The notes beneath the pieces were generated by a model. It was not told the origin of the DNA and did no database searches. It was given only the letters and a program-made list of their open reading frames with translations. A stretch of 22,433 bases of DNA from a virus (lineage: Duplodnaviria > Heunggongvirae > Uroviricota > Caudoviricetes): IMG/VR virus record IMGVR_UViG_2627853732_000005. One strand, given 5' to 3'. Shown one piece after another: positions 3,360 to 17,645 of this stretch. The position numbers and the translations under genes were made by a program. Each line of letters starts with the position of its first letter. Within the stretch, counting starts at the first letter, position 1.

Positions 3360-3662
3360 ATGAGCAGAAAAACCCAACGTTACTCTAAAGAGTTCAAAGC
3401 CGAAGCTGTCAGAACGGTTCTTGAAAATCAACTTTCGATCAGTGAAGGCGCTTCCCGATTATCTCTTCCTGAAGGCACTTTAGGACAATGGGTTACCGCC
3501 GCCAGAAAAGGGCTCGGTACTCCTGGTTCCCGCACGGTGGCTGAACTGGAATCTGAAATTCTGCAACTACGTAAGGCGTTAAATGAAGCTCGCCTTGAGC
3601 GAGATATATTAAAAAAAGCAACAGCGTATTTTGCACAGGAGTCGCTGAAAAATACGCGTTAA
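3360..3662 (+). CDS. IS3-family transposase OrfA (HTH DNA-binding)
   Basis: 100-aa ORF MSRKTQRYSKEFKAEAVRTV...; the identical protein recurs at 12777 and, with one substitution, at 12298 and 20743. Confidence 0.9.
   Translation: MSRKTQRYSKEFKAEAVRTVLENQLSISEGASRLSLPEGTLGQWVTAARKGLGTPGSRTVAELESEILQLRKALNEARLERDILKKATAYFAQESLKNTR
3611..3617 (+). other. candidate programmed -1 ribosomal frameshift site (A7 run followed by G) joining OrfA to OrfB
   Basis: TTAAAAAAAGC near the orfA 3' end. The -1 frame from this point reads KKSNSVFCTGVAEKYALIEQWRQQFPIEAMCQVFGV..., which runs into OrfB. IS3-family elements are known to make OrfAB this way. Confidence 0.6.
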
Positions 3663-3697
3663 TCGAACAATGGCGACAACAATTTCCCATTGAAGCG

Positions 3698-4516
3698 ATG
3701 TGTCAGGTATTTGGTGTATCCAGGAGCGGTTATTACAACTGGGTACAGCATGAACCCTCAGACAGAAAACAAAGTGATGAGCGGCTAAAACTGGAGATTA
3801 AGGTGGCACATATCCGCACTCGCGAAACATATGGAACCCGGCGGCTCCAGACGGAGCTGGCAGAGAATGGCATCATCGTTGGTCGTGACCGACTGGCACG
3901 TCTTCGTAAGGAGCTAAGGCTACGCTGTAAGCAGAAACGCAAGTTCAGAGCGACTACGAACTCGAACCACAATCTGCCAGTTGCGCCAAATCTGCTGAAC
4001 CAGACGTTCACTCCTACAGCACCAAATCAGGTCTGGGTGGCGGACCTGACGTATGTTGCCACACAGGAGGGATGGTTGTACCTCGCTGGCATCAAAGATG
4101 TTTATACGTGCGAAATTGTCGGCTACGCCATGGGAGAGCGCATGACAAAAGAGCTGACAGGTAAAGCCCTGTTTATGGCGCTCAGGAGCCAGCGCCCACC
4201 TGCCGGGCTAATCCACCACTCTGATCGAGGTTCACAGTACTGCGCATACGATTACCGGGTCATACAGGAGCAGTCTGGTCTGAAAACATCAATGTCGCGT
4301 AAAGGTAACTGTTACGACAACGCTCCGATGGAAAGCTTCTGGGGAACGCTGAAAAATGAGAGCCTGAGCCACTATCGTTTTAATAACCGGGATGAAGCCA
4401 TCTCAGTAATACGGGAATACATTGAGATTTTCTACAATCGTCAGCGTCGTCACTCTCGTCTGGGGAATATCTCCCCGGCAGCCTTCAGGGAAAAATATCA
4501 TCAGATGGCTGCTTAA
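3698..4516 (+). CDS. IS3-family transposase OrfB (DDE), copy B
   Basis: 272-aa ORF from the first ATG. Differs from other copies at one visible residue (NQTFTPTAPN versus NQTFAPTAPN). Confidence 0.9.
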   Translation: MCQVFGVSRSGYYNWVQHEPSDRKQSDERLKLEIKVAHIRTRETYGTRRLQTELAENGIIVGRDRLARLRKELRLRCKQKRKFRATTNSNHNLPVAPNLLNQTFTPTAPNQVWVADLTYVATQEGWLYLAGIKDVYTCEIVGYAMGERMTKELTGKALFMALRSQRPPAGLIHHSDRGSQYCAYDYRVIQEQSGLKTSMSRKGNCYDNAPMESFWGTLKNESLSHYRFNNRDEAISVIREYIEIFYNRQRRHSRLGNISPAAFREKYHQMAA

Positions 4517-4559
4517 AAAAAGAACAAATGGTAGTGTCCGCTATTGCCAGTACACCTCA

Positions 4560-11894: not shown

Positions 11895-12233
11895 TACCGG
11901 TATGCTCCACTTAACCGGCCACCATCACGGGCCTGCTGTTGCATAAAGTCCGCGGCCGCTTTTTTCCCGAGGTCATAAACCACCTTCAGGGCAGCCGGAC
12001 CTATCTGCCCGTTCGTGCCATCGTTATTGATCTCAATGTTGTACTGCGGGGCAAACATCACCATGCCTGAACCACCAGTATCCGCCACACCCCCCAGCTT
12101 ACCATCAGCACCGCGACGCAGTGGCAGAATGGCTTCAGGTCCCGCTTCCCCCATCACACCCGCGCCTTTTGCAAAAGCAAAAAACGTCGGACGGTTAACC
12201 ACCGTGCCACTGTAGCGACTCAAATCAGCAGAC
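11894..12233 (-). pseudogene. H: tail tape-measure gene H, C-terminal ~110 codons only; 5' part replaced by IS600
   Basis: Track ORF 11894..12259 begins with codons read out of the IS600 left end (SVKLRLPQ), then continues as an open frame that ends at the stop overlapping the M start. Identity inferred from position and frame. Confidence 0.7.
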
Positions 12234-12715
12234 TGAGGTAGCCTGAGTTTAACGGACACTCCTTCCTGAAATAGAATGGCATCAGAAGGAGCTAATAATG
12301 AGCAGAAAAACCCAACGTTACTCTAAAGAGTTCAAAGCCGAAGCTGTCAGAACGGTTCCTGAAAATCAACTTTCGATCAGTGAAGGCGCTTCCCGATTAT
12401 CTCTTCCTGAAGGCACTTTAGGACAATGGGTTACCGCCGCCAGAAAAGGGCTCGGTACTCCTGGTTCCCGCACGGTGGCTGAACTGGAATCTGAAATTCT
12501 GCAACTGCGTAAGGCGTTAAATGAAGCTCGCCTTGAGCGAGATATATTAAAAAAAGCAACAGCGTATTTTGCACAGGAGTCGCTGAAAAATACGCGTTAA
12601 TCGAACAATGGCGACAACAATTTCCCATTGAAGCGATGTGTCAGGTATTTGGTGTATCCAGGAGCGGTTATTACAACTGGGTACAGCATGAACCCTCAGA
12701 CAGAAAACAAAGTGA
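12234..12715 (+). mobile_element. IS600-like element, copy C, left 482 bp only
   Basis: Left terminal repeat at 12234, orfA, and the first ~20 codons of orfB. The sequence then jumps at 12713-12715 (shared TGA) into the left end of copy D. Confidence 0.85.
12298..12600 (+). CDS. IS3-family transposase OrfA, copy C
   Basis: 100 aa; carries the VPENQ variant (VLENQ in copies B and D). Confidence 0.8.
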   Translation: MSRKTQRYSKEFKAEAVRTVPENQLSISEGASRLSLPEGTLGQWVTAARKGLGTPGSRTVAELESEILQLRKALNEARLERDILKKATAYFAQESLKNTR

Positions 12716-12776
12716 GGTAGCCTGAGTTTAACGGACACTCCTTCCTGAAATAGAATGGCATCAGAAGGAGCTAATA

Positions 12777-13079
12777 ATGAGCAGAAAAACCCAACGTTAC
12801 TCTAAAGAGTTCAAAGCCGAAGCTGTCAGAACGGTTCTTGAAAATCAACTTTCGATCAGTGAAGGCGCTTCCCGATTATCTCTTCCTGAAGGCACTTTAG
12901 GACAATGGGTTACCGCCGCCAGAAAAGGGCTCGGTACTCCTGGTTCCCGCACGGTGGCTGAACTGGAATCTGAAATTCTGCAACTGCGTAAGGCGTTAAA
13001 TGAAGCTCGCCTTGAGCGAGATATATTAAAAAAAGCAACAGCGTATTTTGCACAGGAGTCGCTGAAAAATACGCGTTAA
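12777..13079 (+). CDS. IS3-family transposase OrfA, copy D
   Basis: 100 aa, identical in translation to copy B OrfA. Confidence 0.85.
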   Translation: MSRKTQRYSKEFKAEAVRTVLENQLSISEGASRLSLPEGTLGQWVTAARKGLGTPGSRTVAELESEILQLRKALNEARLERDILKKATAYFAQESLKNTR

Positions 13080-13114
13080 TCGAACAATGGCGACAACAAT
13101 TTCCCATTGAAGCG

Positions 13115-13754
13115 ATGTGTCAGGTATTTGGTGTATCCAGGAGCGGTTATTACAACTGGGTACAGCATGAACCCTCAGACAGAAAACAAAGTGATGAGCG
13201 GCTAAAACTGGAGATTAAGGTGGCACATATCCGCACTCGCGAAACATATGGAACCCGGCGGCTCCAGACGGAGCTGGCAGAGAATGGCATCATCGTTGGT
13301 CGTGACCGACTGGCACGTCTTCGTAAGGAGCTAAGGCTACGCTGTAAGCAGAAACGCAAGTTCAGAGCGACTACGAACTCGAACCACAATCTGCCAGTTG
13401 CGCCAAATCTGCTGAACCAGACGTTCGCTCCTACAGCACCAAATCAGGTCTGGGTGGCGGACCTGACGTATGTTGCCACACAGGAGGGATGGTTGTACCT
13501 CGCAGGAGCAGTCTGGTCTGAAAACATCAATGTCGCGTAAAGGTAACTGTTACGACAACGCTCCGATGGAAAGCTTCTGGGGAACGCTGAAAAATGAGAG
13601 CCTGAGCCACTATCGTTTTAATAACCGGGATGAAGCCATCTCAGTAATACGGGAATACATTGAGATTTTCTACAATCGTCAGCGTCGTCACTCTCGTCTG
13701 GGGAATATCTCCCCGGCAGCCTTCAGGGAAAAATATCATCAGATGGCTGCTTAA
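13115..13754 (+). pseudogene. IS3-family transposase OrfB disrupted by internal deletion, copy D
   Basis: Track shows two fragments (13115..13540 and 13470..13754) in different frames; the first diverges after EGWLYLAG. Confidence 0.8.
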
Positions 13755-13979
13755 AAAAAGAACAAATGGTAGTGTCCGCTATTGCCAGTACACCTCACAC
13801 TCTATCCAACAAACCACCCACAGTTAATCGGAATAAAAGCAGAGTGCTTATGAATGATCGCACGCCCGAAGGTTAGTATTTCTGCACAGCAATTTTGCAA
13901 AAAAAGGCGATCATTCATAACTTAAACGTCTTTCAGTCACTCCGGGATTTCCCATCATCGCAGACTGAAAGACTCTGAC

Positions 13980-14054
<75 letters not shown>

Positions 14055-14057
14055 ATA

Positions 14058-14133
<76 letters not shown>

Positions 14134-14135
14134 GC

Positions 14136-14212
14136 TGGCCCACCACCGAGGACTCGAACCTCGCACCGTCAACTTAGAAGGTTGATGCTCTATCCGGATG
14201 AGCTAGTGGTGG
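14136..14212 (-). tRNA. tRNA-Arg (anticodon UCU)
   Basis: Reverse complement CCACCACTAGCTCATCCGGATAGAGCATCAACCTTCTAAGTTGACGGTGCGAGGTTCGAGTCCTCGGTGGTGGGCCA. Acceptor CCACCAC/GTGGTGG, anticodon stem TCAAC/GTTGA, loop CTTCTAA; encoded CCA. Confidence 0.8.
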
Positions 14213-14213
14213 T

Positions 14214-14290
14214 TGGTGGCCCTTGCTGGACTTGAACCAGCGACCTGGCGATTATGAGTCGCTCGCTCTGACCAACTGAGCTAAAGGGCC
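14214..14290 (-). tRNA. tRNA with CAU anticodon, most likely Ile2 (lysidine type) rather than elongator Met
   Basis: Reverse complement GGCCCTTTAGCTCAGTTGGTCAGAGCGAGCGACTCATAATCGCCAGGTCGCTGGTTCAAGTCCAGCAAGGGCCACCA. Anticodon loop CTCATAA. Overall close to E. coli ileX as I remember it; Ile versus Met cannot be settled by eye. Confidence 0.75.
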
Positions 14291-16204: not shown

Positions 16205-16310
16205 GATGCCTCCAGGTTTATAAGTACAAACGGTTATATCAACATAGAGACAAAAGGTGATGCTGCCAACTTACTGATTTAGTGTATGATCGTGTTTTTG
16301 AGGTGCTCCA

Positions 16311-16586
16311 GTGGCTTCTGTTTCTATCAGCTGTCCCTCCTGTTCAGCTACTGACGGGGTGGTGCGTAACGGCAAAAGCACTGCCGGACATCAGCGCTAT
16401 CTCTGCTCTCACTGCCGTAAAACATGGCAACTGCAGTTCACTTACACCGCTTCCCAACCCGGTACGCACCAGAAAATCATTGATATGGCCATGAATGGCG
16501 TTGGATGCCGGGCAACTGCACGCATTATGGGCGTTGGCCTCAACACGATTTTACGTCACTTAAAAAACTCAGGCCGCAGTCGGTAA
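16311..16586 (+). CDS. insA: IS1 InsA
   Basis: [43 protein letters not shown]..., 91 aa. Confidence 0.95.
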
Positions 16587-17008
16587 CCTCGCGCATACAG
16601 CCGGGCAGTGACGTCATCGTCTGCGCGGAAATGGACGAACAGTGGGGCTATGTCGGGGCTAAATCGCGCCAGCGCTGGCTGTTTTACGCGTATGACAGTC
16701 TCCGGAAGACGGTTGTTGCGCACGTATTCGGTGAACGCACTATGGCGACGCTGGGGCGTCTTATGAGCCTGCTGTCACCCTTTGACGTGGTGATATGGAT
16801 GACGGATGGCTGGCCGCTGTATGAATCCCGCCTGAAGGGAAAGCTGCACGTAATCAGCAAGCGATATACGCAGCGAATTGAGCGGCATAACCTGAATCTG
16901 AGGCAGCACCTGGCACGGCTGGGACGGAAGTCGCTGTCGTTCTCAAAATCGGTGGAGCTGCATGACAAAGTCATCGGGCATTATCTGAACATAAAACACT
17001 ATCAATAA
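16505..17008 (+). CDS. insB: IS1 InsB reading frame (expressed as an InsAB' fusion after a -1 frameshift)
   Basis: 167-aa ORF as given by the track; the functional transposase is known to be the frameshift fusion. Confidence 0.9.
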
Positions 17009-17084
17009 GTTGGAGTCATTACCAAAAAAACCGCCGAAACGGGTTAAGTGCGGGTGCGTTGAGGATGCCTGACACATCAAAGGT

Positions 17085-17106
17085 GGCGGGAGATTACTCT
17101 CCCGCC
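17085..17106 (-). other. perfect hairpin 10 nt 3' of the hok stop (candidate hok mRNA 3' structural element)
   Basis: GGCGGGAGA-TTAC-TCTCCCGCC, 9-bp stem and 4-nt loop; no U-tract. Confidence 0.4.
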
Positions 17107-17115
17107 TGGTCACTC

Positions 17116-17271
17116 TTACTCTCTAGATTCGTAGTCTACGAAAACAGCGACCTCCGTCTGGCCGATTCGGATTCGTACCTCGCAGAGGTCTTTCCTCGTT
17201 ACCAGTGCCGTCACAATGACGGTTAAACAGATGACGATCAGGGCGATTAACATCGCCTTTTGCTGCTTCAT
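17116..17271 (-). CDS. hok: Hok/Gef-family type I toxin (51 aa); the in-frame upstream extension to 17328 is Mok-like
   Basis: MKQQKAMLIALIVICLTVIVTALVTRKDLCEVRIRIGQTEVAVFVDYESRE closely follows HokD/HokC as recalled. AAGGAG lies 9 nt upstream of the ATG at 17271. Confidence 0.85.
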   Translation of the reverse strand: MKQQKAMLIALIVICLTVIVTALVTRKDLCEVRIRIGQTEVAVFVDYESRE

Positions 17272-17610
17272 AGCCTGCTTCTCCTTGCCTTTCGGCACGT
17301 AAGAGGCTAACCTACATTTGTGAGACATAGATTGGGCCTCAGATTAATGTTAAGCGTCTTGCAGGACGCGTAATGTTAACTGGGGCTTTTCTCTGTCTGC
17401 CTTACAGTGACATACCCGAGGCAGACAGCCTCAAGCACCCGCAGCAATCTTACCGACACCGATAAGAAAACGCTATTTTTTATTGCCAGCACCATCTATC
17501 CAGGCTAGTTTATCTGCGTCAGAACGGCGCAATGCGCTCGCCTGAGATACGTTTACTTGCCATGGTAACAACAGGTAACGGCAATTGCTGTTTCTGTTTT
17601 GTTTCCTTCA

Positions 17611-17645
17611 AAAACCCCGGACCATCAATCCGGGGTTTTTGTTTG
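17611..17645. terminator. bidirectional rho-independent terminator
   Basis: AAAA-CCCCGGA-CCATCAA-TCCGGGG-TTTTTGTTTG; U-tracts on both strands, stronger on the plus strand. Confidence 0.65.

Follow-up and report, generated by a model that had tools for sequence, protein, structure and literature searches.

A probably complete hok/mok/sok cassette of the hokD subtype adjoins IS1 in a Shigella sonnei prophage remnant

Has a hok toxin gene that ends 92 bp from an IS1 copy lost its antitoxin and the 3′ element by which its mRNA folds back on itself, or is the cassette still whole? The question is raised by a locus on the minus strand of a 22,433-nt viral sequence (IMG/VR record IMGVR_UViG_2627853732_000005; hereafter the window, meaning this whole stretch), for which the original prediction, made from the sequence alone, had proposed an orphan hok/mok locus with a possibly truncated fold-back element. 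The comparisons below make it very probable that the locus is a structurally complete hok/mok/sok type I cassette of the hokD/'MokW-like' prophage subtype, carried by an S. sonnei lambdoid remnant, with IS1 lying outside the cassette. Such a cassette is ordinary and already annotated, and its biology is known.

Positions 17001-17700 are identical to S. sonnei Ss046 (CP000038) at 700 of 700 bases, and the window as a whole is what remains of a lambdoid prophage, riddled with copies of IS1 and of IS3-family elements. Where E. coli prophages are free of such elements, the hok cassette has a fixed place in the nin region, after variable early genes and immediately ahead of the phrog_1813 gene, DUF1367, YbcO and a Q-like gene. 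Upstream of hok in the window are DUF551, HNH and DUF4014 genes; the neighbouring nin-region genes that were checked are intact, and no relBE-like gene was found near hok, as anticipated. A 497-bp hok stretch was matched in ~4,700 of 5,426 complete E. coli genomes and in many lambdoid and Stx phage records, and enrichment of hok in prophages has been described (bioRxiv 10.1101/2025.08.07.668861).

Other features were seen in the remnant outside the hok locus:

13983-14290, minus strand: four clustered tRNA genes in the prophage late region; the counterpart in E. coli FDAARGOS_944 (L001) is annotated tRNA-Ile, -Arg, -Thr and -Gly
17646-17729, minus strand: an unannotated 27-aa hydrophobic ORF, MTWPEAFTTVGIAMAVALVVYSICRWG, with a strong Shine-Dalgarno (SD) sequence and an ATG overlapping the DUF551 stop (ATGA)
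17609-17641: a 13-bp terminator hairpin following the 27-aa ORF
1446-2622, 3383-4559, 12226-13801 and 20671-21946: near-identical copies or fragments, in both orientations, of a repeated element

In ~55 prophage loci the 27-aa ORF has stayed intact upstream of hok, one of its forms being a diverged variant (MNWPEAFAITGVAMAIAFLVYVICRWG), and a PHROG search with it returned no match. Copies of the repeated element, for which the E. coli annotation of matching sequence is IS3-like IS600, break up the tail and early regions of the prophage.

The coding part of the locus comprises two nested reading frames:

17271..17116, minus strand: hok, 51 aa, with its TAA stop at 17118-17116
17116..17328, minus strand: mok, 70 aa, in frame with hok, with its ATG at 17328

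Nineteen codons of mok precede the hok ATG in the same frame. The toxin matches the Pfam family HOK_GEF (PF01848) over profile positions 1-42 of 42 (E=1.7e-21) and PHROG 251, 'MokW-like host killing' (3.6e-32); in NCBIfam, Hok-family and HokA matches were below threshold only, and no equivalog was assigned. An SD sequence, GGAG, stands 9 nt before the hok ATG (17284-17281), and another, GAGG, 8 nt before the mok ATG (17340-17337). The proposed arrangement of a Hok/Gef reading frame with its ribosome-binding site inside an in-frame Mok extension is therefore borne out by the ORFs, the Pfam match and the SD positions on the minus strand. The locus shows no stop codon, frameshift or element loss. 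The identical protein goes by the name 'Hok/Gef family protein' in Shigella and is the S. sonnei allele.

On the hok-sense strand, the following transcript, promoter and leader elements were placed:

17475-17470, minus strand: weak hok −35 hexamer, TAGCGT
17447..17452, minus strand: putative hok −10 hexamer, TAAGAT, aligning column for column with R1 TATGAT, hokC TATAAT, hokB TAGGAT and hokE TAAGAT
17024..17440, minus strand: predicted full-length hok mRNA, ~417 nt, beginning with the conserved GGGUGC and ending in the terminator U-run
17429..17440, minus strand: tac element, GGGUGCUUGAGG, the 5′ fold-back partner (mRNA nt 1-12)
17393..17428, minus strand: 5′ hairpin of the mRNA, with a 10-bp stem, CUGUCUGCCU/AGGCAGACAG, in the minimum-energy fold
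17382..17388, minus strand: ucb or anti-SD box, AAGCCCC, pairing with the mok SD region in the full-length fold
17326-17321, minus strand: dcb box, GUCUCA, pairing with the mok SD in the truncated fold

With the mRNA +1 at the G of 17440, we infer 17447..17452 to work as the hok promoter; the −10 hexamer of R1 hok, TATGAT, has been validated by FASTBAC-Seq (PMC9841398). A simple sigma-70 consensus scan of 16900-17750 reported no promoter. The same scan found the hok promoter of R1 and missed the Sok promoter of an R1-like control locus, so its null result is not read as absence.

The leader is recognised by Rfam family RF01794 from 17440 to 17266, over model positions 1-157 of 157, with 118.1 bits (gathering score 59). 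This compares with 118.3 bits for K-12 hokC, 109.7 for hokB, 87.2 for an R1-like plasmid locus and 84.4 for hokE, while K-12 hokD gave no match to the model. Although named 'sok antitoxin', RF01794 matched the hok-sense strand in every locus tested, starting at the 5′ end of the mRNA and stopping at the hok AUG; this is the strand opposite to annotated sokC, sokB and sokE, so that family name and strand disagree. Since all matches run in the hok sense and end at the hok AUG, what the family recognises is the leader of hok, and Sok is encoded on the opposite strand.

The complementary strand holds the predicted components of an antisense gene:

17285-17290, plus strand: predicted Sok promoter −35 hexamer, TTGCCT, followed by a 17-bp spacer
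17308-17313, plus strand: predicted Sok promoter −10 hexamer, TAACCT, 7 nt before the predicted +1 at ~17320
17320..17396, plus strand: predicted Sok RNA, ~77 nt, with ends taken from alignment to annotated K-12 sokC, sokB and sokE

The two hexamers were read from the sequence and lie below the threshold of the simple promoter scan; they are co-positioned with TTGCGC/TATCCT of the R1-like locus and with a conserved CAAGG...TTAGCC block. The predicted RNA has a 5′ tail that can base-pair with the region around the mok start, a long terminator hairpin and then UUUUCUCUGU, and folds at −33 kcal/mol (z = −5.83). The label 'orphan' very probably does not hold: with 118 bits of RF01794 on the leader and a putative Sok gene at ~17320-17396 that has promoter hexamers and a hairpin, the locus is one in which a predicted Sok antitoxin gene is present. 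Alignment to R1-like and K-12 loci, which had been suggested as a check, together with folding placed tac, ucb, dcb, fbi and the predicted sok promoter, and putative antisense promoter hexamers, complementary elements and an unbroken hok frame were all found where their lack would have spoken against a hok/sok locus. Of the upstream inverted repeats that had been assigned to Sok and its target, both are real helices. The one at 17369-17365 / 17358-17354 forms in the minimum-energy fold and falls in the Sok terminator stem (17354-17369), as expected of it, but the one spanning 17393-17428 is the hok mRNA 5′ hairpin.

What, then, has become of the 3′ end? Between the hok stop and the insertion sequence lie 92 bp (17024-17115), a spacing that had been given correctly, and the elements there are ordered as follows:

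17085..17106, minus strand: GC-rich 9-bp post-stop hairpin, GGCGGGAGA/UCUCCCGCC (17106-17098 / 17093-17085), beginning 9 nt after the stop
17052..17064, minus strand: fbi element, CCUCAAcGCACCC, the 3′ partner of tac, 51 nt after the hok stop
17024..17042, minus strand: intrinsic terminator, CCGU-UUCG-GCGG (17042-17031) followed by U7 (17030-17024)
16256..17023, plus strand: IS1 copy 1, 768 bp with both terminal repeats, its IRR adjoining the hok terminator

The perfect 9-bp hairpin described earlier is thus present, and fbi, which pairs with tac, is intact 28 bp inside the junction. IS1 copy 1 adjoins the last U of the terminator U-run, of which seven of eight U are kept. The nearest IS-free relative, E. 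coli FDAARGOS_944, differs by three substitutions over 677 aligned bases, none of them in the 3′ tail, and the 92-bp tail matches it except for U7 in place of U8:

17414: in a hairpin loop, with no effect predicted
17143: in the Val43 codon, synonymous
17165: in codon 36, T36I

According to the reading put forward at the outset, IS1 truncates the 3′ fold-back, leaving an mRNA that lacks fbi and a locus deregulated or inactivated in the manner of IS-hit K-12 loci. The closeness of IS1 to the stop codon invites this reading, and so do K-12 hokC and hokE, where IS186 does truncate the locus 18-19 bp after the stop. The insertion there is 19 bp after the stop in hokC (L003 1732-1752) and 18 bp in hokE (L005 1489-1508), in both cases inside the post-stop hairpin, so that fbi and the terminator are gone. 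In the window, however, fbi, the terminator hairpin and seven of eight U all stand between the stop and IS1, the tail equals the IS-free FDAARGOS_944 tail minus one U, and fbi sits at +51 as in intact loci. Truncation is already refuted at the level of sequence, and we give it hardly any credence. The accompanying statement that K-12 hok loci often have IS insertions just 3′ of the toxin was right in outline, as hokC and hokE show, but there IS186 removes fbi as IS1 does not here; in hokA, IS150 is on the 5′ side. IS1 lies clear of all parts of the cassette, whose regulation it should leave unchanged. When the IS1 right end was inspected by eye for an outward promoter reading antisense into hok, no convincing −10 hexamer was seen.

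The fold-back itself is backed by folding and by comparison. The 417-nt hok RNA folds at −163.1 kcal/mol (z = −5.87), as well as which none of 100 shuffles folded, and the minimum-energy structure is closed by 12 bp between tac and fbi; the mok SD is sequestered in it. We gathered ~140 hok loci from genomes and viral contigs, ~100 of which have a recognisable 5′ end and sufficient 3′ flank. In nearly all of these ~100 testable loci, the first 12-13 nt of the mRNA can pair with a segment that lies 45-56 nt beyond the stop (+51 in the window), whereas the pairing is absent from the IS186-truncated K-12 hokC and hokE. The two partners change in concert:

Escherichia: 5′ GGGUGC with 3′ GCACCC
Photorhabdus and Pantoea: 5′ GGGCGC with 3′ GCGCCC
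K-12 hokB: 5′ GGGUGCC with 3′ GGCACCC

Two Photorhabdus contigs (L043 1356-2383; L055 956-1653) carry two tandem hok loci within ~600 bp, and Photorhabdus genomes hold many paralogous hok copies each.

Covariation was assessed on a sequence-only MAFFT alignment of 39 diverse loci for four helices, namely tac/fbi, the 5′ hairpin, ucb/SD and the post-stop hairpin. Across these, 91% of cells are paired, as against 41-52% with the partners slid; 13 pairs change on both sides, and none of 500 shuffles reached the observed covariation score. Pair 4/427 of tac/fbi, for example, is U-A in 25 of the 39 sequences and C-G in 11. The 5′ hairpin (arms 17428-17419 / 17402-17393) is 92% paired and has three pairs that change on both sides, the post-stop hairpin has five, and the GCCCC of ucb is invariant. 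The window mRNA aligns end to end with the 38 other loci.

When the RNA was shortened in silico from its 3′ end (nt 1-358 or 1-365), tac moved onto ucb through pairs 1-3/57-59 and 5-8/53-56 (GGG/CCC and GCUU/AAGC), and a hairpin between the mok SD and dcb appeared. The same tac-ucb and SD-dcb rearrangement after 3′ processing is described for R1, as is a post-stop stem-loop that shields the processed mRNA from 3′ exonucleases (PMC9841398), to which the 9-bp hairpin of the window corresponds.

A small hairpin within the hok coding sequence is also conserved:

17124..17138, minus strand: UAGA[CUACGAA]UCUA, with the Tyr47 codon, UAC(G), in its loop

Its UACGAA is nearly invariant in the 39 loci while the stem covaries. 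The CUACGAA of the loop is also the anticodon-loop sequence of tRNA-Arg2. The hairpin is a candidate TadA A-to-I editing site; such editing, changing Tyr to Cys, has been reported at the matching Tyr of hokC, hokD and hokE (bioRxiv 10.1101/2025.08.07.668861).

Beyond this anatomy, the steps of a mechanism can be proposed by homology with R1 hok/sok. The weak promoter would give rise to a stable ~417-nt hok mRNA, closed by pairing of its 5′ tac with its 3′ fbi and with the mok SD held on ucb, so that ribosomes and Sok would be excluded. Slow trimming of the 3′ end, as far as the GC-rich hairpin after the stop, would remove fbi, upon which tac would re-pair with ucb and the mok SD/dcb hairpin would form. 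The opened RNA would then be bound by the short-lived Sok and destroyed or, once Sok is gone, be translated through mok into hok, yielding a presumably membrane-damaging peptide. As for the neighbouring element, IS1 would have inserted at the last U of the terminator, with removal of 135 bp of downstream intergenic DNA.

Conceivably the cassette is anatomically intact and phenotypically silent, a recent relic in a decaying prophage that owes its survival solely to the youth of the S. sonnei clone. T36I (codon ATC, 17165) and a weakened terminator could be first signs of decay. Nearly all other Hok sequences compared have T, S, D or A at position 36, I being confined to the S. sonnei allele and one other sequence, and the exchange could lower toxicity. 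In relatives the terminator reads CCCGC-UUCG-GCGGG plus a U-run; its stem is 5 bp there and only 4 bp in the S. sonnei lineage, so some read-through into IS1 may occur. The window, moreover, abounds in IS1 and IS3-family copies, the three substitutions relative to E. coli are too few to demonstrate purifying selection, and post-segregational killing was not mediated by those chromosomal hok loci that had been tested (bioRxiv 10.1101/2025.08.07.668861). On the other hand, the locus is free of stops, frameshifts or lost elements, the checked nin-region neighbours are intact, and most chromosomal Hok peptides are toxic when overexpressed (bioRxiv 10.1101/2025.08.07.668861). We regard a silent relic as possible, though rather doubtful. 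A complete cassette would give S. sonnei a toxin module that is potentially active and has the lineage-specific T36I, within a prophage remnant bracketed by IS1.

The bracket is formed by a second IS1:

19772..20539, plus strand: IS1 copy 2, in the same orientation as copy 1, with three mismatches to it and with its own 10-bp duplication, AACTCATCTT

The pair encloses 2748 bp including hok/sok, a configuration which, with two same-orientation elements differing at three positions, resembles a Tn9-like composite transposon that could have brought hok/sok to this site on 2.7 kb of DNA. No target-site duplication was found at copy 1, and as copy 2 has its own, the two did not come in together; nor do the outer flanks agree. 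Gene order, both between the two copies and beyond them, follows that of IS-free E. coli prophages, and an IS1-hok-IS1 unit occurred in no plasmid or E. coli genome searched. What looked like plasmid matches to such a unit were unrelated IS1 copies and separate hokD loci, and the transposon idea, whose chance of being right we consider negligible, was dropped. At copy 1, the interval from the terminator to the next gene lacks 135 bp of AT-rich intergenic DNA (L001 4498-4632 in E. coli); the loss, together with the lack of a duplication, fits an insertion after which IS1 deleted adjoining DNA, or else a recombination event joining two IS1 copies. An exact search of one-genome-per-species contigs gave no match to the hok-IS1 junction, and it is present in every S. 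sonnei locus examined, these having been reached via exact-protein look-ups. Judging by these loci, the junction is specific to S. sonnei. Beyond it, S. sonnei CP151349 (L013 4701-8156) has Mu-like transposase genes (A/B type) in place of the DUF1367 genes.

Elsewhere, E. coli 2018-11-3CC (L146 1186-1290) carries an independent IS1, in the same orientation, ~11 nt past the terminator of a different hokD-type locus, and IS421 lies just downstream of a plasmid hokD (L144 ~1320-1514). A wider view would be that hok 3′ ends are recurrent IS landing pads and that, in S. sonnei, the IS1-bracketed and active hok/sok serves as a deletion lock, by which cells that delete the 2.7-kb segment through IS1 x IS1 recombination would be killed. 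It draws on IS186 and IS421 at the post-stop hairpin (K-12 hokC and hokE; apparently plasmid hokD) and on IS1 copies that lie, in the same orientation, just past the terminator in S. sonnei and, independently, in E. coli 2018-11-3CC. Target preference of the IS elements could alone lie behind the pattern; the GC-rich post-stop hairpin, for one, suggests itself as a preferred IS186 target. A paper on IS elements in the long-term evolution experiment (PMC7881107) makes no mention of hok. We consider the landing-pad and lock idea improbable. For the complete cassette favoured here, the consequence is a plainer one: an IS element beside hok need not mean a disabled locus, as what decides is whether it inserted before or after fbi and the terminator. 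Beyond correct annotation, this matters little.

How does the cassette compare with characterised systems? It shares with hok/mok/sok (parB) of plasmid R1 the order of its parts, from a weak hok promoter through tac, ucb, the Sok target, the mok SD and mok to the hok SD, hok, the post-stop hairpin, fbi and the terminator, as well as an antisense Sok whose promoter is inside the 5′ part of mok and the same predicted switch from a closed to an open RNA. The two differ in that the Hok of the window has strongly diverged from R1 Hok, mok is in frame here and out of frame in R1 (by arithmetic on the coordinates in PMC9841398), the Sok hairpin of the window has ~20 extra nt, and the R1 locus is on a plasmid rather than in a prophage. 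The R1-like leader, unlike that of the window, has a 17-nt insertion in the 5′ hairpin.

Among K-12 loci, hokD (relF, of the Qin prophage) matches the window locus with 92% identity along 261 bp that begin 14 nt ahead of the ATG, run to the terminator and include fbi, and close relatives of the window locus are annotated HokD. Unlike the window locus, K-12 hokD is without a leader (no RF01794 match, tac, ucb, mok start or sok) and follows relBE. By this comparison the window locus is of the full-length hokD type, and K-12 hokD is a 5′-truncated copy, with relBE in place of the leader. K-12 hokC/mokC/sokC (gef) has the same in-frame mok, of hok length plus 19 codons, and an equal RF01794 score. 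Both hokC and hokE resemble the window in having an IS element on the 3′ side of hok; as against this IS-inactivated type, IS1 in the window follows the terminator U-run and no regulatory element is lost. In hokA, IS150 on the 5′ side splits mokA and sokA. With prophage hok morons (PHROG 251; the hok of Stx and lambdoid phages) the cassette has the gene, the RNA elements and the nin-region position in common; the differences are limited to the T36I allele, the junction with IS1 and the 135-bp deletion.
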